Source: Octopus vulgaris (taxonomy: Eukaryota). Taken from it: 64,000 nt of DNA. Within the stretch, counting starts at the first letter, position 1, and each line of letters begins with the position of its first letter. The stretch covers positions 54,064,001 to 54,128,000 of the forward strand of contig OX597831.1 in the NCBI GenBank assembly GCA_951406725.2. Reading direction: 5' to 3'. Position numbers and translations under genes: made by a program. Under the pieces are notes generated by a model. The model did no database searches. It had not been told where the DNA came from and saw nothing but the letters and a program-made list of their open reading frames with translations. Below, one piece after another: positions 4,385 through 50,585 of this stretch.

Positions 4385-4547
4385 GGCGTAGGAGTGGCTG
4401 TGTGGTAAGTAGCTTGCTTACGAACCACATGGTTCCGGGTTCAGTCCCACTGCATGGCACCTTGGGCAAGTATCTTCTACTATAGCCTCGGGCCGACCAA
4501 AGCCTTGTAAGTGGATTTGGTAGACGGAAACTGAAAGAAGCCTGTCG

Positions 4548-4594
<47 letters not shown>

Positions 4595-4806
4595 GTATGT
4601 ATATCTGTGTTTGTCCCCCCCCCCCAACATCGCTTGACAACCGATGCTGGTGTGTTTATGCCCCCATAACTTAGCAGTTCGGCAAAAGGGACTGATAGAA
4701 TAAGTACTAGGCTTACAAAGAATAGATCCTAGGGTCGAGTTGCTCGACTAAAGGCAGTGCTCCAGCATGGCCACAGTCACATGACTGAAACAAGTAAAAG
4801 AGAGTA
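4385..4806 (+). mobile_element. Full-length tRNA-derived SINE (octopus-type) with internal (TA)n microsatellite
   Basis: A-box-like TGGCTGTGTGG, B-box-like GGTTCAGTCC, CACCTTGGGCAAGT core, 3' end CATGACTGAAACAAGTAAAAGAG; CpGs retained (young); many diverged copies in the window. Confidence 0.9.
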
Positions 4807-11736: not shown

Positions 11737-12545
11737 TGAGGGCAAAACTTTCCATGTGTTGCTCCATAAAACCAGTATAACTGAAGAGAACCAAAATTTC
11801 TTTTCCTGTCAATAGTTAATGATTCAGGATTAGTTTTCACTTGATTTATTTACTGTAAACTTGTCACTCATTCCAGTCATCTTCATGTCATGCTGCAACT
11901 TTTGGCACTCTTTGCTGGCTTGCTGTACAATATGAGTTAATCAGTTTCAATTTGAATTCTTTAACTCATAATCAGTTTCAATTTGAATTCTTTATGAGCT
12001 AAAGAATTCAAATTGAAACTGATTATGAGTTAAAGAATTCAAATTGAAACTGATTATGAGTTAAAGAATTCAAATTGAAACATTCACATTCATTATTTAC
12101 TATATCTGCATAGCTGAAAAAAATCCTCCTCCTTGGACTTGACAATTTTAAAATGATTGCATCTAATGTTAAACAGTTATGAGTTTGCACCAAAGATCTT
12201 CTGAAGTATTTCAACTGTCTCATTGAAACTGATGTCTCAAGGATTCTTCAGTAGTATATAATTAATGTATTTAGTGTGTTTGTTAATTCCGAGTTTGGCT
12301 AATAGTGATCTGACTTTTGCCTGGTCATGAATATTCGAACAGTCAACATGAAAAGTATCTTCAAAACTTTGCAAACCAGGTATCAGCAATTTGGTCGAAA
12401 ATATATTCTCTAATAGAATTCGAAGGTGCCTGAGATTTGTCACTGTTCGAGTGGAAAGATAATGTTTGAGTTAGTAATTCAATAAGTTTAAACTGTGCTA
12501 CCTCAAATTGTTTCTGCTGATGTTCAAGAAGCATTTCCATTTGTT
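11737..12545 (-). mobile_element. Decayed Gypsy (K02A2.6-like) LTR retrotransposon gag
   Basis: Across stops and frameshifts reads DTWFAKF/EDTFHVDCSNIHDQAKVRSLLAKLG..YINYILLKNP*DISFNETVEILQKIFG..LFNIRC..YADIVNNECECFNLNSLTHNQF..ECQKLQHDM..YWFYGATHGKFCP; matches motifs I recall for this gag family, including a decayed Zn-knuckle. Confidence 0.8.
11938..12056. repeat. Perfect 57-bp inverted repeat (5-nt loop) built from a 31-bp tandem unit
   Basis: 11938-11994 is the exact reverse complement of 12000-12056; unit TAATCAGTTTCAATTTGAATTCTTTAACTCA. Confidence 0.95.
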
Positions 12546-16688: not shown

Positions 16689-17629
16689 GTAAATTCAATA
16701 ATTTCACTAAATAAATAAATATTCACTTGATAAAAGTTTTTAACATGTACAATGAAATGTAAATTTAAAGTTATCAATGAATCATCTATTGGGATATAAA
16801 ACTATCTGAACATTTTTTGTTGTTGTTGCTGTTGCTGAATTACAGCGCAATTTTCTTAGATTGTTGCATAGAGAATATTGCATTTATTACTCATCAAAAA
16901 TGTCAATGCTCATTTCACATCATTATTTGTATTCTTTCACGTCCTTTCTCTTTCCAAACAAATATAGGTGTATGCACATGTTTGGAAAATGATTTATTGT
17001 AGACAGTTTAGATGAGTAGCTACATCAGCGTGTTTTCACTGGTTTAATTGAACCTGTGAATATGTGTGTTAAAATCACTTTCTGAGGTTTACGAAAGAAT
17101 TAAGATGTAGTTGGTGTGAAACAAACTAGCTACATGTTAGTGTTGCTAGATTTTATTTAATTGCTTATGTCTAATTTTATGATGTACCTCTTATTTTCAA
17201 CTTGTTCTATATTGTGTGTGCATGGTGGGGTCTTAACTTTATACTGACTTTGTTTGCTAGCATGGATAGTGTATGTTGTCATGGGTTGAATCCATTTCTT
17301 TTGGCATTACTGTTCTCCTCCTCTTTGCCAGTGAGTAAGAAGAGCATGTCTTGCTTGCACATTTCATCAATTCTATGTCTGGGTGCTTTATCAAACACCT
17401 CACAGTGTATTAGGTACATTTCATAGTGGTATCACCACTTAAAAGGTTGTCTCATTGCCAACAAAGCCAAGGAACTATCATGACTCTGTACCACTTCATC
17501 TCACTCACCAACCACTTCACCGAGTGCATCTCATCACAACACCCGCACTAATGAGACTGCTTTATATCACACATAGCCAAAAAGTACTCAGTACTCCATG
17601 CTACTGTCTCTACTAGTTTTACTTGGTCA

Positions 17630-19047
17630 CTTGTGACCGAGAAGGTGAGTTGAAGATTGCATTGAACCAATGAGAATGTGGTGAAGTAGTCTTCCTTTGC
17701 AAAGTTCAGAACCATCTCTAATCAAAATTAAGGTGATGATTTTTATTGTGCACCAGAGCAAGTGGATGTCCATACTTGTGAAGATCTGATCGCAAGCCAC
17801 ATAGTTAGCATGAACATAAAACAAGACTGGTCAGTTGAACAAGATTTGTCTGAATTAGAGCCTTTCTCATTATCCAACTCCGAATTAACTGTCTATGATA
17901 GTTGCCTACTTTGATGCTGAGAGTAATTATCCCTCTCAATCTGGGGCATGAAGTAATCTATCAACGTCACATGATGCATCCATGTCAACAGGATGAAGGC
18001 ACTTACATTTTCTACATTTGGTAGCAAAAGCTGCATTGTGAGTAAGAAGGAGCCATGTTAGAGGCTACAATAATGTCAATACTCCAATACAATTTCGAGA
18101 ATAGCCTTCTGGCCCATGGTCCTTTCTACATATAGGTTATGTAGGTCCATTTCTAAGCAAAATGCTTTCACTTGTTGAAGACACTTAGGCCAAATGGATT
18201 GAAGCTACATCTATGAGCACTTGAACTTCTATAGCAACCATTGAAAAACTTGTTTTTAAGATTCATAGCCTTTCAGATATGTGCAGTAGATAATGGCTCT
18301 GCCTCTGCAAGTGATGGATTTTTGAGCTTTATGTCTCTAAATGGTATATGGCATGTAACCAATGCATCTTGTTGCTTGTCATCCAATAGTTGTACAGAGA
18401 GGGCTGTCCAAACTTTCAGTGCAGCTCTGAAGAAAGTGTCAATTTGAAGTTATGACATAACTGAGACTAATAAATCATTTTCTATTTGCTTATTGAATTA
18501 TGCATCCACCTTGCTACTCTCTGTGAGTCTCCTGTGGAACTGTTGTTGAATCATAAATTATGCAATTTTTTCGATATAGTTAAACCTAGCTTCACTTGAT
18601 GCTACCAACATACCCAGGAGATGGTGATTGCTCAAAAACAGCTGAGAAATTGGTGAGTTGGTGTATCTTAGGAACTACAGCCAAAGAGAAAAATGAAACT
18701 CTGAAACAGCACTCAAAGCAAATCGCCTAGTTTCATATTCTGTATCTGTATGAGGGGATTATCCAGAGACATGTTAATCAATTATACTCACATGTTAACA
18801 AATGATAATCCCTATTTTGAATCTGTAGTTCATGTATTTTCAACAAAGTGTTAATTATTTCTGCTGCGTGATACACATCTCCAAGCAACCAAACTTTTGG
18901 CAGCACCTATTCCACCACATGAGATAGCACTGAATCCCACTATCACAACAATCTAATTTACCTGAAATTACTTATATCCAAGTCAGTATCAGAGCCCACC
19001 ATCCTGTCTAACAAAGTTTGATTGTTTTGTGAGCCAAAGGGGGAAAA
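17630..19047 (+). mobile_element. Decayed Gypsy pol (integrase region) ending at a polypurine tract
   Basis: ELTVYDSCLL..RVIIP..HP..RMKAL (Zn-binding region), PSGPWSFLHIGYVGPFL..KWIE, AVDNGSAS..FMSLNGIWHV..SNSCTERAVQTF (rve core, D and E positions); PPT AAAGGGGGAAAA at ~19036-19047. Confidence 0.85.
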
Positions 19048-24904: not shown

Positions 24905-25140
24905 ATCATCATTTAATGTCGGTTGTCTGTGTTGGCATGGGTTGAACAGTTTGACCAAAGCTGGAAGGCTGCACCAGACTCCAGTCTGATTTGGCACGGT
25001 TTTCTATGGCTGGATACCCTTCCTAACACCAACCACTCTGAGATTGTAATGGGTGCCATTTGCATGACACTGGTATCTGCCATGACTGTGATTTTGCTCG
25101 GCTTGATGGGTCTTCTTCTCAAGCATGACATAATGCCAAA
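24905..25140 (-). mobile_element. RTE-family 3' fragment, next to a (TATC)n tract
   Basis: catcatttaatgtc...ggctggatacccttcctaacaccaaccactctgag, the same 3' end as the adjacent copy. Confidence 0.85.
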
Positions 25141-25144
25141 GATA

Positions 25145-27130
25145 TATCATCATCATCATTTAATGTCTGCTTTCCATGCTAGCATGTGTTGGATGGTTTG
25201 ACATGGAGTTGTCTAGCAGGGAGCTGTCCAGACTCCAGCTGTCTGTTGAGGCATGGTTTCTATGGCTGGATGCCCTTCCTAATGCCAACCACTTAACAGT
25301 ATGTACTGTACTGGGTGCTTTTTACATGCCACTGGCACAGGTGCATTTACACAGCACCAGAACAGGTGTATTTATACAGCACTGGCACAGTTGTTTTAAC
25401 GCAGCACCAGCACAGTTGCTTTTTAAGTGGCACCAGTACTTGAAAGGTCAAGCCGGTATGTGTTGAAGACAGCCACTTTACTCAATTTGATGTGTCTTAT
25501 CAAGTACAGCAAATTGCCACATCTCTTGGTCCCTTGTCATTTCCTCAGTGTGGTCCAGCGTCTGAAGATCATTTCTCACCACTTCTTCCCACATTTTCCT
25601 GGGTCTACCCCTTCCACAGGTACCCTCCACAATTAGAACTTGGCACTTTTTTATGCAGCTGTCCTCATCCATATGCATTATATGACTAAACCAGTGCAGT
25701 CTTCTCTCTTGCACACAACATCTGATGCCTCTTATACCCAATTTTCCTCTTAAATCATTTACACTCTGTTGTGCATGCACACTGATATAACCCATCCAGC
25801 AAAGCATGCTAGCTTTATCTTTTTCAAGCTTTCACAAGTCCTCTGTAGCAAAGCCTATGTTTCTCTGCCATGTAACACAGCTGTACATACACAGGCATCA
25901 TACAATCTGCTTTTCACTCTGAACTTCAACCAGTATGTTCCTATCCTAGCTACTACACTTTCAGAACTTCCTCCACCACCACTTCTAACTTGGTCTCCTA
26001 GGTAGCAGAAGCTACATACTACTTCTAATGACACCCCCCAACACACACACCCAGCATTTGAGGGAGCCTATTGTCTGCACATTTTTAGTGCTTATTGTAC
26101 CTGCACATTTGCTACATACAAAGGCTATTCTCCATTAACCTTCCTGTGATACCACTACACCTCTTATGTGTCCAAAGCTTGCACTGGGTTCAACATATGG
26201 AGTTTCTACTAACACTCTTCTTACGTATCAAGCAAGGCCATCTTCCAGAAGGGACTAGTGCTTGTCTGTTTCCCTACTTACTAGGACTTTGGGTTTTGCT
26301 AAAATTAACTCTAAGGCCTTTAGATTTCAGATCTTGTTTCCACACCTGAAATTTCTTCTATAAGTCAGGTAGTGATTCAATTATAAAAACAAGGTCATCA
26401 GTGTTGAGGAGCTCCCAGGAACAGCCAGTCTTGAATTCCTCTGTTAAGGCCTTGAGGACTAAGGTAAACAGGAGGGGCTGAGAACTGGGCCTTGGTGAAC
26501 ACCTACATATGTATGGCTTGTACTGCTTCCACTAACCACTCATCTGCCCCTAGCTTCTGCATTGACCACCAGATAAGGGAAATAGGGGACCTTGTCAATG
26601 GCTTTCTCCATGTTAACAAAAGCCAGGTACAGAGGTTTATTTTTGGCTAAATACTTCTGAAGTTGCCTAACCAGGAATATAGCATCAGTCGTGCTCCTGC
26701 CTGGCACAAGTCTGAACTGCATCTCATCTACACTAACTCTCTTAATTAATTGAGTTATGACTCTTTCTGTGACTTTCATCACCTGGTTCAGCAATTTGAT
26801 GCCTCTATAATTATTTCTGTCTAAGGCATAACCTTTGCCTTTGTAGCAGTTGACTATAATGCTGCTACACCAATCACTGGGTATTACTCCCTCATGGACA
26901 ACCTGATTAACTATATAGGTGACTAGGCCTTATCCTACTCCACCAGATATTTTTAGCATCTCAGTAGTGATTCCTGATGGGCCAGGGGCTTTTCCTGTTT
27001 TCATATCCTTAATTGCTTTATCCACCAAGCTATTGTTGATTTAGATAGCTGGTCCCTCAGTTGGGTCTATAGACTCTCCTTCTCCCATTCATTTTCCATG
27101 TTTAGCAAACTTTCATAATGGCATTTCCAA
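25145..27130 (-). mobile_element. 5'-truncated, decayed RTE-clade LINE (reverse transcriptase through 3' tail)
   Basis: YKGKGYALDRNNYRGIKLL, DEMQFRLVPGRSTTDAIFLVRQLQ, LLNTDDL (decayed YADD), FCYLGD, LHGRET, RRLHWFSHIMHMDED..GRGRPRKMW; (CAT)n tail at 25146. Confidence 0.95.
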
Positions 27131-31819: not shown

Positions 31820-33509
31820 AGTGAGTTGTTTTGATTGATTAATGAAGCTTTGCTACTTTTGTTTCTAGACAATGGGACATACTACAAATAATCACTGTCA
31901 AAACTATTTGATAGATTTCATTTATTTTTTCAGCTTTTCTTCTTTCGTTGCTTTTAAAATTATCAGATTTTCTTTATTTTTATTGCCTGTTCATAAATAA
32001 GCCCAGCAGTATATTTATCTATAAAACTAAAGGAAGCCAAGAAAAGAAATGAAGCATAGTTATTTAGTGAAGTTATTATGTAAGAATGTTTTTCAAGAAA
32101 ATAAGTTATTGATTATGTGTAGTGATGTCAAATGACCTGTTCATGAAATAAAGTTATAAATTTTAAACCTTTTTATTATAGTATTATTTCTTTTTTCTAC
32201 TTTTAAAATTAAGAAAACAAATTTGGCAATTTTAGAAATAGCCATAAACTATTACATTAAATGTAGGTTTCAAATCTTGCTTTAAAAGAAGCTGATAAAA
32301 CAAATTGTTCATATGAGGGGAAAGACAGAAATAGTCTAGGGAATACTACCATTATGGGATGCATTTAAAATATAGCACTTTACACTATTTTCCTGAACAA
32401 CTTAGCTGAAAATAGCTACTATTCCCACTTGATGATTTAAAAATTGAGATAAAGTAGAGCATCCATTTGTAACCTTTTTATGTTAACAGCAGTTAATATA
32501 AATATCTAAAATGGACAGAAGTGCTCCAAAAATTAAAATTTAATAAAAAAAAATTGCAGTTTGTTCTTAATAAATTATTGATGCTGCCTTCGTAGTTAAA
32601 TTTATGAAGGTTTATTTCAGTTGATATTGTTGCGCAACAAAAAAAGTTGGTCCCTCCATCACAGTAAATACAAAGTTTATTTTGTAAGACAGAAAGAAGG
32701 TATAGTTTATCTCCACCTCAATGTATTTCTGTGTACTCATTTCCTATAATTTCATCATTCTTGAAAAGCAAATTTTGCTCCAGTTAACAATTCATTTCAA
32801 CCTAGATATAGTAAAGCATTTAAAATAATTATCTGCTGTGTATACCAATTCCATTATAAAGTTGACTAAATATTAAATCTTTGAATTTCGGCTATGTTCA
32901 AATTATCTTGTGTTTTGACACATTGTAAGAAAAATCGACAAATGTGATTAAGAATTTTATTCTAAATTGCATAAAATAGTAGTAGTTTTGATCTATTGAG
33001 GCAGACATTACATAATATTAGCAATGCATTTGAACTCTGGTATTAGAAAAAAGTGTGGGAATGGGGGTTAAATGTTGATCCCATCCAGGAAGACAAAACT
33101 ACAGTTAGAAGTCTTAGGGGAGAATTAAAATGCACTACTTCTAGGAATGTGGCCAAGGTTGATGAGGATGATAATGAAGTATTTACTTGATATCAAAACA
33201 TCAGTAAAGACTACACATGTATTAAAGAGAAGTAAGTAGTGTTGAATGATCTCAAAGAAGGGCAAAAGTAACAACCCAACCAAAAAGGAATTTTTTTAAC
33301 TGAGAGGACCTGCATGACTACCAATTAATTGAAACTGCAAATAGGTAATTAATTAGTGAAAAAAAGAATAGGCTGATCTGAAGTGACAACTTCAGGCAAG
33401 TTTCAGTCTTATTAGACCTCCTCAGTGAACCATAATCATCCATGTGACTGCTAGATTAATAAAGAGATAAAAGAATATATATTCATTTATAAAGGTTGCT
33501 CATACACTT

Positions 33510-33632
33510 TTTATTTCTCAAGATGTCACTTTTCAGCACACCACTGCACTCTGGGTCACCAATACAGTTCCATTTTGTCAGTGGTCAGATTGTAGTGGTG
33601 TAATGAAAATTTTGGTACCTTTGAGAAATAAA
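33510..33632 (+). ncRNA. Candidate pri-/pre-miRNA hairpin
   Basis: tttatttctcaa/ttgagaaataaa, tgtca/tggta, ttttca/tgaaaa, acaccactgca/tgtagtggtgt, tctg/caga, gtcac/gtggt, acag/ttgt, loop ttccatt; wobbles are G-U on +. Confidence 0.55.
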
Positions 33633-36438
33633 TGAAAATCATAGTCTCAGACCATGTCACTCACCAAATATGTACAACTCCAATTTTTTTTTCTATTTTA
33701 GTCACTTGTAATATCATATCAAAATATGGTAAGATGATCAATAACTCTTCTATTATGTAAATTTTAAACTACTCAGAATACTTGAATAATTTTAATAACA
33801 ATTTCTCAACTGAATCACTATTTGAATTGAAGTTAACAAGTTGTGTGAAACTTAGCATTAAAAATGGCCCTATTGAAACACGCAGAGACACTGTCATATA
33901 TTAATATCCTTTAGCTCTTGGTGTATGGTCTTGTTAATATAGGCTAAATTCCCTGTTAAGAGAATAGAGAAATGGAAATTTCTGCTGATTTCTCTGTTGG
34001 TTCAAATATGTCTAATCTGTCCTTTTTCCACTCACTCAATCAAGAATATATTTCTCTTTTACCATTCTTTCAGCAATGATCTCTTCTCCTAAATTTTCAA
34101 TTTTAACCACTTACATGCCAACCATATTTATTTCTCAATTTCTTTGCATTCTCAACTGAATCAGTGTATTTCAATAGAACTTCCTCTGCATATTCCCCCC
34201 AAAGAATTCTGAAAAACATATTTAGTGACAACAAAATGCACAAAAGCATTTCAATGGAAAAAATAAATGGAGATTTTCTGCTCTTCATGAGTAGTTCTAG
34301 CTTTTAAAGTATCTCATTCACTAGACATATTAAAACTCTCTCCAACAAACTTATTTTATTTTTTAGAAACTTATCAATTTCAATAAACTTAGTTGAAGAA
34401 ATGTAATTTCCCTTGGGAATGTGAAAAAAAAATGCTTTAATTCTTGAATATTTGTTGCCTAAAACCTAAATAAACTGCTTTTGTATCTGGAAGAGTACAA
34501 TTCTTTAATAAGTAGCTTACTATCAATTGCAGCTTGATATAAATATTGAAAAGTAATGTAAAACAACAAAAATGTACACAACAGCCAAATTATATTTAAG
34601 CAGGAGAGGATCTGAAATACATGTTTGCTAAATAAATCATTACAAGAGATAAATGGAAATTTTTTTTTTAAAGTTAAAGAAAGCAAATCATTTGTAGCTA
34701 CCCTGGTGTGACATTCATGTAAAAGCATGACACTGAACAATTATAAGCTGCACTACATGTATACTATAACATGAGGTATCAGTAAATAATACACATAACA
34801 TTCATCTTCTGACTTATTTTCATAAAGTAATCTAAAATATTAAACTCTGATAAATGTCTAAAGTCTTTTTTCATAGAAAATATTCCTGTGCGATGTTGCT
34901 CACATGGTTTTGTGTTCTTTTTTTTTTTCTTTTTCTTTTTTTTTTCATTACTCTAAAAAGCATTTATGGCTTTTAAAAGGTGGTTGAAGCACTTGAATAT
35001 CTGGAATCGTTTTTTAAAAGCCTACAAATGTTTTTCACTCAAAAATGAACAAACAGAAAACTATGTAACACCATTGTCCACAAAGAGTATTTTCTATCAA
35101 CAAAGTTTCTTTTTTTTTTCTTTTTCTTTTTTTCTTTTTTTTCAAATAGTTCTGTTTAAACTAGATTTCGGTGATCAGAGGCAATTATACTTTAAAGCTA
35201 GAAAATTTGACTATCTTTAAACAAATTGATAAAATTTATAATTATACTCTGAAAGTTAAGAAAATTACTTTGATCTAATTATTAACAGGAATTTTAAAAT
35301 TTCAAAAACACACTGCAGTTACAGTTTAAAAAAATATTTGTTTGGAATATCCTTTTCAATCATCATCAATATATTAATGATGGTACTGGCTACACTGATC
35401 TACTGTACATCATTTTAGCAAATGTCTTGGTCTCTTCTACCTTTTATTGAACAACACTTTCATCATACATACTCATATATACCAGCATTATCATGGGACT
35501 ATTTGTTGTAAGCCACTAAGTTCTGTAAATGGAAGGGACAACAGCCTGGCATAGTAATGGTAAAACTATACCAGCTAAACAACAGGCTTGGAAAGTTTGA
35601 AAAAAAAAGGGCAGCAAGTGAAATATCAAGCATCTGACAGATGTCTTTAAACAAAAGAGATTTGCAAATATTCTACACCGTGAGGATGATTGACACAAAA
35701 TATTCTAAAGTGCAAAGTAGCATATTTATATAAATTGAGATGTCATTGAGAGGTGTGCCTGAAGTGATGCAGGTTCACTTGAATTTTCTATGGTAACCTG
35801 CCACTGTGGTAGTGGAAAGAAAGAGATGTATAAGTGCTACAATGAGAAGTTGCTGAATGAAAAGTACTAGTGGGATAGTGAAGGATTACTCAGTCAATCA
35901 ATTGTAATACCTCTTCCTACATCTTAGTTTTCTTTTTCTATGGATACTCTATTGAAAGCTCATGGTACTTTATCACCCAACACTTTTTGTCCACTCCTTT
36001 ACATTCACATCAGTGCAATTATTGCTCCTTCACAATTTAGCTGATGTTTTTAAGCCCAATTATGGTCAGTCCCTCATGCATACTAATATTACATCTGCTA
36101 CACACCTGCTAATTCTATTTCTCTTTGGTATCTACAGATCTACATCCTCTGTATATGTTGTCTTGCTATACAGTACTTCTTTCACTTGCTTCATATAGTG
36201 TCTCGCTGAAAGAGGAAATTTCTTACTATTATTAACTTTCAAATTGGTTTTGATTAAGCAGTCCTATGGTCTGTAATTGGTAACAAACAACTAGGCACAT
36301 GATTCACAGATTCAGTATTCAGTCAGTGTTTAGAGTACCATAGTGCTGTTTATTAGTGGTGTAATGATGAGGCATGTATTGATTGCTGTGCACAACTTGG
36401 ATACAGCTATGCCGATTCTATCTTTTTTTTTTTTAGAG

Positions 36439-37890: not shown

Positions 37891-38229
37891 TTTCTTTATC
37901 TTTTACTTGTTTCAGTCATGCTGGGGTACCATCTTGAAGAATTTTTAGTTGAATGAATTGACCCCAGTACTTTTTTTGTAAGCCTGGTACTTACTATATC
38001 AGTTTCTTTTGCTGAAACACTAAGTTATAGAGATGTAAACACACCAACGCCAGTTGTCAAGCGATGGTGGGATACACACACAATGAGCTTCTTTCAGTTT
38101 CCGTCTACCATATCCATTCACAACATTTCAGTCAGTCTGGGATTATAGTGGAAGACACTTGCCCAAAGTGCCACACAGTGGGATTGAACCTGGAACCATG
38201 TAGTTAGGAAGCAAACTTCTTACTACACA
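37891..38229 (-). mobile_element. tRNA-derived SINE, near full length
   Basis: Reverse of the 4385 family from cttttacttgtttcagtcatg to gaacctggaaccatgtagttaggaagcaaacttcttactacaca. Confidence 0.9.
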
Positions 38230-41110: not shown

Positions 41111-41622
41111 CATCATCATCATCATCATCATTTAGCGTCCGTTTTCCATGCTAGCATGGGTTGGACGGTTCAACTGGGGTCTGGGGAGCCCGAAGGCTGC
41201 ACCAGGCCAGTCAGATCTGGCAGTGTTTCTACAGCTGGATGCCCTTCCTAACGCCAACCACTCCGAGAGTGTAGTGGGTGATTTTATGTGCCACCGACAC
41301 AGGTGCCAGACGAGGCTGGCGAACGGCCACGCTCGGATGGTGTTTTTATGTGCCACCGACACAGGTGCCAGACGAGGCTGGCAGACGGCCACGCTCGGAT
41401 GGTGTTTTTATGTGCCACCGACACAGGTGCCAGATGAGGCTGGCGGACGGCCACGATCGGATGGTGTTTGTTACGTCCCCAAAGCACGGAGGCCAGTCTA
41501 TGCGGTACTGGCTACGGCCACGTTCGGATGATTTTCTTGTGTGCCACCGGCACTGGTACCACAAAGATACAAATTCCATTGATGTTCATCTATTTTGATT
41601 TGTTTTGATTTGATTTTCACTT
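41111..41622 (-). mobile_element. Young RTE-family 3'-UTR element with (CAT)n tail and an internal ~62-bp tandem repeat
   Basis: (CAT)7 ttagcgtccgttttccatgctagcatggg...ggatgcccttcctaacgccaaccac; CpG-rich; three near-identical units TTTTATGTGCCACCGACACAGGTGCCAGACGAGGCTGGC..CGGCCACGCTCGGATGGTGT plus degenerate ones. Confidence 0.9.
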
Positions 41623-46210: not shown

Positions 46211-46457
46211 ACTTAGTCATGGAAGGAAAAAAAATTCACTTTTATACAATATCATTTGATATTTTTAATATCTAAATTGGTGTACGTAAATGATTAAGAC
46301 ATTTGAATCTCTAAAAAATGATTGTGGTAAATAAATTCTAAGGGTGACTTGCTAACATTGAAATGTTGAAGCCTACGAAAGCTTACAATAAAAGCAGTCC
46401 TATTGCACAGTATGTAATGTATCTTAAAATACTATCAAACAATAATTTCCAGTAACT

Positions 46458-47285
46458 CATCAGCATCATCATTTAACATCCATTTTTCATGCTGGCATGG
46501 GTTGGATGGTTTGACTGAGGTTTGGAGAGCCAGCAGCTGCACCAGGTTCCAATCTGATCTGGCAATGTTTCTACAGCTGGATGCCCTTCCTAATGCCAAC
46601 CACTCTGAGAGTGTAGTAGGTGCTTTTTACGTACCACCGGCATGGGAGCCAGTCAGGTGGGCCTGGCATCGATTGCGTTCAGATAGTGCTTTTTATGTGC
46701 CACTGTTACAAGAGCCAGTCAGGCAGACCTGGCATTGACCATATCTCCAAAGGTCCTCTGTGAGGCCCAATGTTCGAAGTTCATGCTTCACCACCTCATC
46801 CCATGTCTTCCTGGGTCTACCTCTTCCACAGGTTAGGGAGTGGTCCTTCCTCACACAGCTATCTTCATTCATACATAACACATGACCATACCAGCACAGA
46901 CGCCTCTCTTGCACACCACATTTGATGCTTCTTATGCCCAACTTTTCTCTCAGGGCACTTACACTGTTATGTATGCACACTGACATTACACATCCAGCAG
47001 ATCATACTAGCTTCATTTCTTTCAAGCCTATGCATGTCCTCAGCATTCATGGCCCATATTTCACTGCCATGTAGCATGGCAGTTCTCACACATGCATCAT
47101 ACAATCTACCTTTCACTCTGAGCGAGAAGTCCTTAGTTGCCAGCAGAGGTAGGAGCTCCCTGAACTTTGCCCAGGCTATTCTTACTCTAGTCACTACACT
47201 CTCAGAGCAGCTACCCCCACTACAGACTTGATCGCCTAGGTAGTGGAAACTATTAACTACTTCTAATTTCTCCCACTGGCATGTG
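46458..47285 (-). mobile_element. 5'-truncated RTE LINE (RT C-terminus and 3' tail)
   Basis: LEVVNSFHYLGD..IAWAKFRELLPLL..KGRLYDACVRTAMLHGSEIW..RRLCWYGHV..GRGRPRKTW; (CAT)n tail. Confidence 0.95.
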
Positions 47286-49049
47286 GTCATTTGAAATCCC
47301 ACCAAATACTGCATTCTTCCTGACTGAAAGTCATTTGAAATAGTCCAGGCTGGTATATACAGACAGTCGCCACCCAAAATTTTCTTGAGATGTGCACATT
47401 AAGAGAAACCCTATTTATAGTTCATTTGAATAATATTTTTTTGGTATCTGTTAATGAAGAGTCTACTAATTAAGACAGCTAACAGTATTGCTAAACAATA
47501 TAGTTTCTTGAGATTTCTGACTGATAATATAAGTCCCAGTGATCATATTAGATTGTTTTCTTGTGGGATAAAAAATATGTGAAGCTACTAATTTGTTTTA
47601 TTTCAATGAATGGCAATGCCCCAGCATCGCTGCAGTCTAATGACTGAAACAAGTCGAAGAGAAAAAAAAACAAAACATTTTGATATCTTTAAAAGTCTTC
47701 AATTATCTTCCTTGTTACCATCATTGTTTTAAGTTTCATTGTTCCATGAAAGTTAGGGAACCTTTACACGGTTACATGACTTGCTAGAAGTTGCAGCCAA
47801 ACTTCACCCAGATAACATTTGAGTTTAAGAAAAGGATATATTAGATAATGTAGTCCTACTTGCCCTTGAAAAGTCAGAATTGACACTGTTAGAATGCGTG
47901 TGATCATAAGTTAGCTCAATCAAAGCTGATGAAGGGCCAAGTAACAACAGTATGAGTTGAATCTGTTTGCAGTAAAGCCCACCTTTCTCACATCTGATCT
48001 GATATCCCTACTTTTTCTCTATATTTTTCTAGGTCTTTGGTCTATCTTACACAGCAATTACACACCACCTTTTCAACCAATATGCTTCATCCATCTATAT
48101 AGCACATGTCCATATATGCACGGTTACCTCTCCTGCACATTATCATTTGATACTTTTAATATCCAGATGCATTAATACTTTTTCTACTCACTTGAGGAAA
48201 CAAATGCCTCTATTGACCATATTTATTCCACTCTTTTGAATAGAAGTTCAGTTATATTCTGTTTGATGTTTAAACTCTCGATTTTTCTGACTGTATCATA
48301 TCTAATGTATTTGATATTTCTGTCAAATGATGTAGAGAAGCAAGTGCCAGTTTCAAATGTTTCCTATTAGATACCCTTCAAAAGGTGTGTATGTATATAT
48401 TATACAGAACTGTGATAGTGTTGCTAAATAACATAAATGTATGAATACATCAGCCAAATAGCCTTATCACAGCCTATTTATTTTCTTTTGATGTATCAGA
48501 AATGTTTGTTAAACAATTGACAAGCTTCCCTTGTTTCAATTTCCCTGCTTTAACTCATGACTTCTGGTAATTTTATTAAGTCTAAACAGAAAAATCTTTA
48601 CAAATGATCTTTTATTGGCTCTCATTTAAGTTAATAAAAATGCTAATTCATAATTGCTTTTGAATATTCTTAACATTTATTTCTAGTTCACTTCCATGTT
48701 ATGAAAATGTAATTAAGACTTAGAGATTTGGTTTTAAAATCATTCAAGGCATATTTGATATAATTTATATCTGTTGTTGGATTTCCAATGTAAAGCCTTT
48801 TCAGTGAAGAAATCAGGGCTGTCTTTGATAGTGAAATTTTGGGGGAATAATTTATATATTTGGCTTATAAATTTTCTAAAATGAATCATGCTGTTTTTAA
48901 AAATAAATGCATTGTGGTTTGTAAGTTTTCTTATTTCTGTCATTTGCTGGTTTGTATTTTGTCTTATTCTTTTACTACCATTACAACATTGAATTTAAAG
49001 GGTTTTTTTTCTATATTTTGTGTGTGCCATTAACTATTTATGTCACTTC

Positions 49050-50049: not shown

Positions 50050-50179
50050 TTACTGGTGGGGAGATGAGTCACTGCTATCTCTAGCAGTCAAACATTAACA
50101 AAGATCAAAGAAGGTTGAAATCATGTGATCTGATGGTCTTGGTACTGGAGATGGTGGGGATTTATCTCTCCACTAGTGA
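50050..50179 (+). ncRNA. Long G-U-rich RNA hairpin (pre-miRNA-like or ADAR-type dsRNA)
   Basis: 50050-50084 pairs register-perfectly with 50145-50179: 34 of 35 positions paired, 9 G-U, one A-G mismatch; the stem continues inward (tcaa/ttgg, catt/gatg, agatca/tgatct). Confidence 0.6.
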
Positions 50180-50585
50180 AAAAAACAAGCATGCTTTTTG
50201 CACCAAAAGCCAATATGAGAGTTTCTCTCACATGGTATCTACCACAGTATAGTTTGTTCTATCAGAACATCCATGTTCAAGTGGAGATAATATCACCTCT
50301 CACTATATTGTCTGTATTTGTAAAAGGTAAACATCTTAAAATTGTGTCTGATGTAAGGAATAATTGTTAGGGTTCAGTGGTGGGAGTGAGTATGGTTGTC
50401 AATGTTTGTGTCTAGATAAGTTGGCAGTTGATGAGTTTTTAACATTAAAGTTATAACTTCTAGATTGAGAAAAAAAAAATTAAGGTTATGTTGCTGCATG
50501 GTCTATAACACTGATATCTGCATGTTAAATATCAGTGTAAAGCAGGTAAAAAATTTACTTCATGTTGTCCACCATGCCATTAATA

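Follow-up and report, generated by a model that had tools for sequence, protein, structure and literature searches.

A pri-miRNA-like hairpin in Octopus vulgaris is probably a decaying inverted repeat near a Penelope-type hammerhead relic

MITE and foldback relics are short, combine perfect terminal with imperfect internal inverted repeats and have no coding capacity. The cleavage-site triplet of hammerhead ribozymes is NUH, and MirGeneDB recognises a miRNA gene when both of its arms yield reads with homogeneous 5′ ends and a 2-nt offset. In O. vulgaris, 164 miRNA genes have been annotated, and novel families account for 94 of these (PMC9699675). The MirGeneDB 3.0 criteria comprise arms of 20–27 nt, a mollusc precursor below 80 nt, about 19 ± 1.6 pairs and an imperfect duplex; the same source notes that cephalopods are not in miRBase (PMC11701709). 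Penelope-like elements (PLEs) often leave inverted truncated copies (PMC8557442, in the part available), and the minimal hammerheads of metazoan PLEs are, in the accessible text, mostly dispersed single motifs (Cervera and de la Pena 2014, PMC4209133).

We analysed a window of 64,000 nt of O. vulgaris DNA containing a hairpin (33510–33632, plus strand) that had been put forward as a lineage-specific pri-miRNA. In our reading, to which we give a probability of roughly 60%, this hairpin descends from a low-copy repeat or a local inversion that is now decaying, and is not a processed, functional miRNA gene. It resembles MITE and foldback relics in its shortness, its inverted-repeat layout and its lack of coding sequence, and differs from them in having about three look-alikes on one arm only, no convincing target-site duplication and no known terminal repeat. 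With the novel octopus and coleoid miRNA families, as far as these are described in the available parts of PMC9699675 and PMC11701709, it shares a precursor below 80 nt, arms of 22–23 nt, 18 duplex pairs, U1 and U9, an A-starting star, a basal UG and an orthologous hairpin in a second organism, but departs from them in showing no excess conservation, no CNNC, UGU, CmR or GWG motif, and a long perfect outer helix.

The window is 32% G+C, CpG-depleted (observed/expected 0.18) and rich in microsatellites and dispersed repeats. No host gene was found: 622 open reading frames came through a complexity filter, and of the 146 ranked highest among them one matched Pfam, and this was a reverse transcriptase fragment. 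The hairpin likely lies in non-coding DNA. The fragment has its best homologue in Argonauta hians (65% identity), which supports an octopod setting, and belongs to broken LINE-type retrotransposon pieces on the minus strand at 25481–27040 and 46696–47398, with Pfam RVT_1 at 26543–26929. Dispersed SINE-like repeat copies occur at 24982–25293, 41116–41285 and 46457–46627, and at 4399–4722 together with 37972–38229, several of them beside (CAT)n runs. The stretch 17300–19000 is free of repeats and higher in G+C; it holds a protein-like frame of 58 amino acids (18276–18449, minus strand) with no Pfam match and no homologue among longer proteins.

On the plus strand the hairpin folds into a single stem whose minimum free energy and centroid structures coincide at −44.3 kcal/mol (z −5.18; 0/200 shuffles as stable), which bears out the original prediction of a 123-nt unbranched hairpin. 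The minus strand folds less well (−39.9 kcal/mol, z −5.12). The two arms are 76.6% complementary across 47 columns. From the outside inwards, a perfect 11-bp A+U helix is followed by a loose lower stem and by a 2×2 internal loop where Drosha is proposed to cut; an 18-pair duplex comes next, and 21 nt separate the arms at the top. The outer helix (5′ strand 33511–33522, 11 perfect pairs with 33621–33631) lies outside the presumed Microprocessor basal junction, and its continuation past that junction favours a decayed inverted repeat. The terminal loop is small, at 7 nt, as predicted, but it tops a weak 4-bp helix above a 4×2 internal loop, so that the loop between the arms amounts to 21–22 nt.

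In a local-fold scan of the window the hairpin scores −45.0. A control covering eight shuffled 64-kb strands (250-nt blocks), which addresses multiple testing, gave −40.3 for the best hairpin of the same class (non-repeat, GC ≤ 0.42, unbranched); as none of the eight strands reaches the energy of the hairpin, a long inverted repeat here exceeds chance. Among non-repeat unbranched hairpins of the plus strand it ranks second, in an order that leaves out the perfect tandem-unit palindrome at 11938–12057. The palindromic region as a whole (11938–12081; 57-bp arms, 5-nt spacer, inverted tandem 31-nt units) is either a recent inverted duplication or an assembly artefact. The best-ranked structure, at 50050–50180, folds at −58.2 on the plus strand (z −8.9) and at −28.4 on the minus strand, with arms of about 35 bp around a loosely paired 60-nt spacer. 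It is MITE-like or a second hairpin candidate, and shows marked strand asymmetry; the presence of this stronger inverted repeat in the window means that such structures are not rare here.

That the hairpin is instead a genuine octopus-lineage miRNA gene we regard as unlikely. Drosha would then cut at about 33538 and 33603 and Dicer at about 33560 and 33582, and a 3p product with the predicted seed GGUCAGA would guide Argonaute to 3′UTR sites; the candidate may already be among the 94 novel Octopus genes in MirGeneDB. Geometry and base propensities fit this reading, as does the better fold of the plus strand. The proposed precursor (33538–33603; −26.6 kcal/mol, z −3.76) comprises 23 + 21 + 22 = 66 nt with 18 duplex pairs, within MirGeneDB geometry. 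Its shape is precursor-like, as first proposed, with one correction: if the 3p arm starts at 33582 and Dicer leaves a 2-nt overhang, the 5p arm has to end at 33560 (23 nt) and not at 33559. The predicted 3p, mature-like arm (33582–33603) has a paired U1 and a U9, and the predicted 5p, star-like arm (33538–33560) begins with A, in agreement with the propensities in the available part of MirGeneDB 3.0 (PMC11701709). As the register was picked after viewing the sequence, this agreement is weak evidence. Two of the processing motifs are present, namely a UG at −14/−13 from the proposed 5′ Drosha cut (33524–33525, within a paired 5-bp helix) and a mid-duplex wobble at position 12. The other four of the six, each of them optional, are absent (CNNC, with none at +15 to +20, apical UGU, CmR and bulged GWG), which tends to speak against a miRNA and for a decayed inverted repeat. 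The original prediction was right about both the UG and the missing CNNC.

How much weight this geometry can bear depends on how often it arises by chance. An explicit precursor-geometry filter returned 10 passes in nine shuffled 64-kb strands, about one per strand, and three distinct loci in the real window, so that precursor shape is weak evidence; none of the 10 shuffled passes, however, folds as well (−23.8 at best) as the candidate (−26.6). Scaled by hand arithmetic to 2.4 Gb, the size of the contigs of sequencing run X18, this rate predicts about 80,000 passes by chance. Such passes far outnumber annotated miRNA genes, which again favours a decayed inverted repeat. Likewise by hand arithmetic, a blindly chosen 64-kb window would hold an annotated miRNA gene with a probability of about 0.4% (over contigs of about 2.4 Gb), a low base rate that counts against a miRNA and presumes that the window was picked blind to miRNA content.

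A search of the whole window with 4227 Rfam families gave no match at gathering score. The best miRNA model, mir-2733 (RF04275; 33531–33608, E = 1.4), is similar in hairpin size but scores 19.9 bits against the 72.9 needed, and we treat it as a chance match. As cephalopods are missing from miRBase, the silence of Rfam does not count against a miRNA. The Euprymna miRDeep2 lists, in the part of PMC8125070 available, contain no matching mature or precursor sequence, only unrelated short matches, which would argue weakly, and solely against a coleoid-wide family. The available MirGeneDB 3.0 supplement has no match to the seed words of the candidate, and a full-text literature search returned no paper containing the sequence words of the hairpin arms. 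Identification through the A positions in table S4 of PMC9699675 was rejected, since in the part available several Novel families are compatible and the match is non-specific. We likewise set aside a snoRNA, for which every match had E > 1, and a tRNA or tRNA-SINE origin, for which ARAGORN reported 0 genes. A scan of a metagenome collection gave no matches to the 3p arm; the 13 loci found with the two outer arms share just 14–17 nt and are unrelated.

To compare the locus with that of a related organism (organism E), contigs of four runs (X18, X8, X13 and X9) were aligned to 33050–34100 at 80% likeness; 20 of the 24 runs listed contain part of 33200–33900. One organism-E contig, found in both X18 and X13, spans 33098–34100 and differs by 25 other letters plus 31 gap letters; overall divergence is just 2.3%. 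X13 is only guessed to be RNA; if it is, this contig would speak for a miRNA. We could place 23 of the 25 substitutions, with four gap letters unplaced, so further differences inside the hairpin are possible. Among the listed differences, the hairpin carries 3 substitutions in 123 positions and its flanks 20 in 880 (Fisher p = 0.75), and the downstream flank (5/468) is better conserved than the hairpin; this lack of excess conservation favours a decayed inverted repeat. The downstream flank itself (33633–34100), set against 15/412 upstream of the hairpin, is possibly a conserved non-coding or UTR stretch.

Within the hairpin, the organism-E differences turn a mismatch into a pair at 33549, change the loop at 33571, lose the top pair at 33581 and remove a bulge by deletion at 33618. 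By part, the listed substitutions number 0/22 in the predicted 3p arm, 1/23 in the 5p arm (33549) and 2/21 in the predicted 21-nt inter-arm loop (33561–33581; 33571 and 33581). This unchanged 3p arm and loop-biased pattern is what a 3p miRNA would show, yet it is non-significant, with P = 0.6 for an unchanged 3p arm at the flank rate and P = 0.08 for the loop. The organism-E hairpin folds better, at −49.3, a value matched by only 1.2% of 3000 randomly drawn four-change sets. We do not accept this as proof of selection: changes on the lineage of the window at ancestrally paired sites look identical, and neutral decay of a once better-paired repeat, with some of the changes on that lineage, would look alike, so the better fold does not discriminate. 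The hairpin is present in organism E and its 3p arm unchanged among the listed differences, but its rate equals that of the flanks.

The case named at the outset as fatal to a miRNA, a MITE-like multi-copy spread, did not appear. At ≥80% likeness no extra contig covered 33549 or 33571 on the 5′ arm, and X8, X13 and X9 yielded none on 33554–33625 at that threshold, X8 also lacking the orthologue there. Hence this is not a large MITE family, at a threshold that would miss older copies below 80%; the hairpin would belong at most to a small or old family, and not to a typical MITE burst. Its being largely single copy also fits a miRNA. Of the traits of a MITE, the terminal inverted repeats are present as the perfect 11-bp outer helix, while no target-site duplication is evident beyond a palindromic TA inside that helix, and high copy number of the whole element is absent at ≥80%. 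The 3′ side is different. Over 33580–33638 there are about three other organism-E contigs at ≥80%, with a bin depth of 4.1 times single copy in X18. The sole look-alike piece listed covers 33586–33638 with eight other letters and one gap (estimated E ~7e-4, composition bias ignored); it begins past the predicted seed start and extends into the basal stem, an extent that suggests a dispersed repeat rather than a miRNA paralogue. These look-alikes elsewhere argue against a miRNA and favour a decayed inverted repeat. The start of an X9 contig at 33536, a hole in X8 at 33547–33654 and the cover in X9 and X13 were not taken as expression evidence, since both X9 and X13 consist of contigs and their being RNA is a guess.

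Immediately upstream, a second, branched fold had been drawn at 33299–33426. As drawn it is weak (z −2.1, 8/200 shuffles), and the region contains instead a minus-strand hammerhead that had been missed and that explains it better. With a structural descriptor we find a degenerate type-I minimal hammerhead at 33391–33429, the only match in the window, with 0/200 shuffles matching; Rfam HH9 matches weakly at the same place and strand (E = 8.6). Helix I has 4 bp (33429–33426 with 33394–33391), the cores are CUGAGGA from 33425 and GAAAC at 33404–33400, helix II has 5 bp closed by G-U, helix III is minimal and the cleavage-site triplet is GCC. In common with the Penelope-like minimal hammerheads described in the accessible part of PMC4209133 are the CUGANGA and GAAAC cores, the 4-bp helix I, the tiny helix III and the dispersed single copies; the 5-bp helix II closed by G-U and not by G10.1-C11.1, the non-palindromic helix III and the absence of U at 16.1 set it apart. 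Retrozymes, as described in the available text of PMC7229834, are tandem, whereas this motif is not.

The hammerhead segment (33382–33446) is a dispersed multi-copy repeat in two DNA runs (52–88 times single copy), with summed contig depths, which are not exact copy numbers, of 72–88 times single copy in X18 and 52–59 times in X8. Where G10.1-C11.1, a palindromic 15.2–16.2 and an NUH triplet belong, the present copy shows G-U, a helix III that is not palindromic, and GCC; the loose ends of other copies in X18 and X8 end in GACAT before 33400, that is, palindromic with GUC. Judging from these departures at 11.1, helix III and 16.1, set against the palindromic form elsewhere, the copy at 33391–33429 is likely inactive. 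A PLE hammerhead would be expected in the pLTR of an RT/GIY-YIG element; no PLE reading frame was recognised by eye in the six frames of 32400–35100. Among the papers listed by a full-text literature search, none was devoted to Penelope-type hammerheads in octopus.

The motif lies about 80 nt upstream of the hairpin, on the opposite strand. Between them is an A+T-rich 24-nt palindrome (33467–33490), and in both X18 and X8 a single contig runs from 33429 straight into 33467, a hint of a related element that connects hammerhead and palindrome. A further link is one gapped contig reaching about 33522, which, like the 33467 joint, could be a low-complexity match; beyond these two, what would tie hammerhead to hairpin is proximity only. 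The adjacent multi-copy Penelope-type relic favours a decayed inverted repeat, and since inverted truncated PLE copies are common, a hammerhead 80 nt away points to a possible origin.

Our preferred reading of a decayed inverted repeat can be put as follows. An inverted duplication would have made two complementary arms, its source being perhaps a small foldback or MITE-like insertion, or an inverted truncated copy such as Penelope-like elements leave at their ends. The arms would then have drifted about 23% apart, by chance sparing a 22-nt precursor-sized duplex, and any transcript of the hairpin would be no more than passive double-stranded RNA. Against this relic stand the fit to a MirGeneDB 3p-mature gene, a precursor energy that beats the shuffled passes, the better fold in organism E, the unchanged 3p arm and the fact that two of three substitutions fall in the loop, as well as the lack of extra 5′-arm contigs, of an evident target-site duplication beyond the trivial TA and of an identified transposon family. 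Taken together, the tests run give a miRNA no advantage over a decayed inverted repeat.

A quite improbable alternative combines features of both. The hairpin would be young and repeat-derived, cut weakly or imprecisely by Microprocessor or Dicer as a proto-miRNA or endo-siRNA source, possibly also an ADAR substrate, and under little selection as yet. Its repeat-like features (outer helix, 3′-arm look-alikes and neighbouring PLE motif) together with its precursor-compatible geometry would suit this, and PMC9699675, in its available part, describes numerous background products of the pathway at low expression, and editing that is concentrated in introns and UTRs. That A+T-rich sequence folded this way by chance, never having been duplicated, is very improbable and largely refuted: a shuffled strand yields about one shorter precursor-like fold, but 0/8 such strands reach −45 (best −40.3) and the z-score is −5.2.

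For the hammerhead relic, the matching motif class is already known across metazoans, and the hairpin, on either reading, is of a known kind. A real miRNA here would add one member, which may be annotated already, to the known octopus expansion. The tie to the neighbouring Penelope-type element, if true, would name a source of novel octopus miRNA genes. We see only a slim chance that the hairpin is an unannotated octopus-lineage miRNA, with predicted 3p seed GGUCAGA, that arose from an inverted repeat which a Penelope-like retroelement carrying a hammerhead left behind; if so, it would give a member of the octopus miRNA expansion a concrete retroelement birthplace. As a decayed repeat, it would matter little except as an example of the ease with which relics of repeats can pass for pri-miRNAs in A+T-rich cephalopod DNA.
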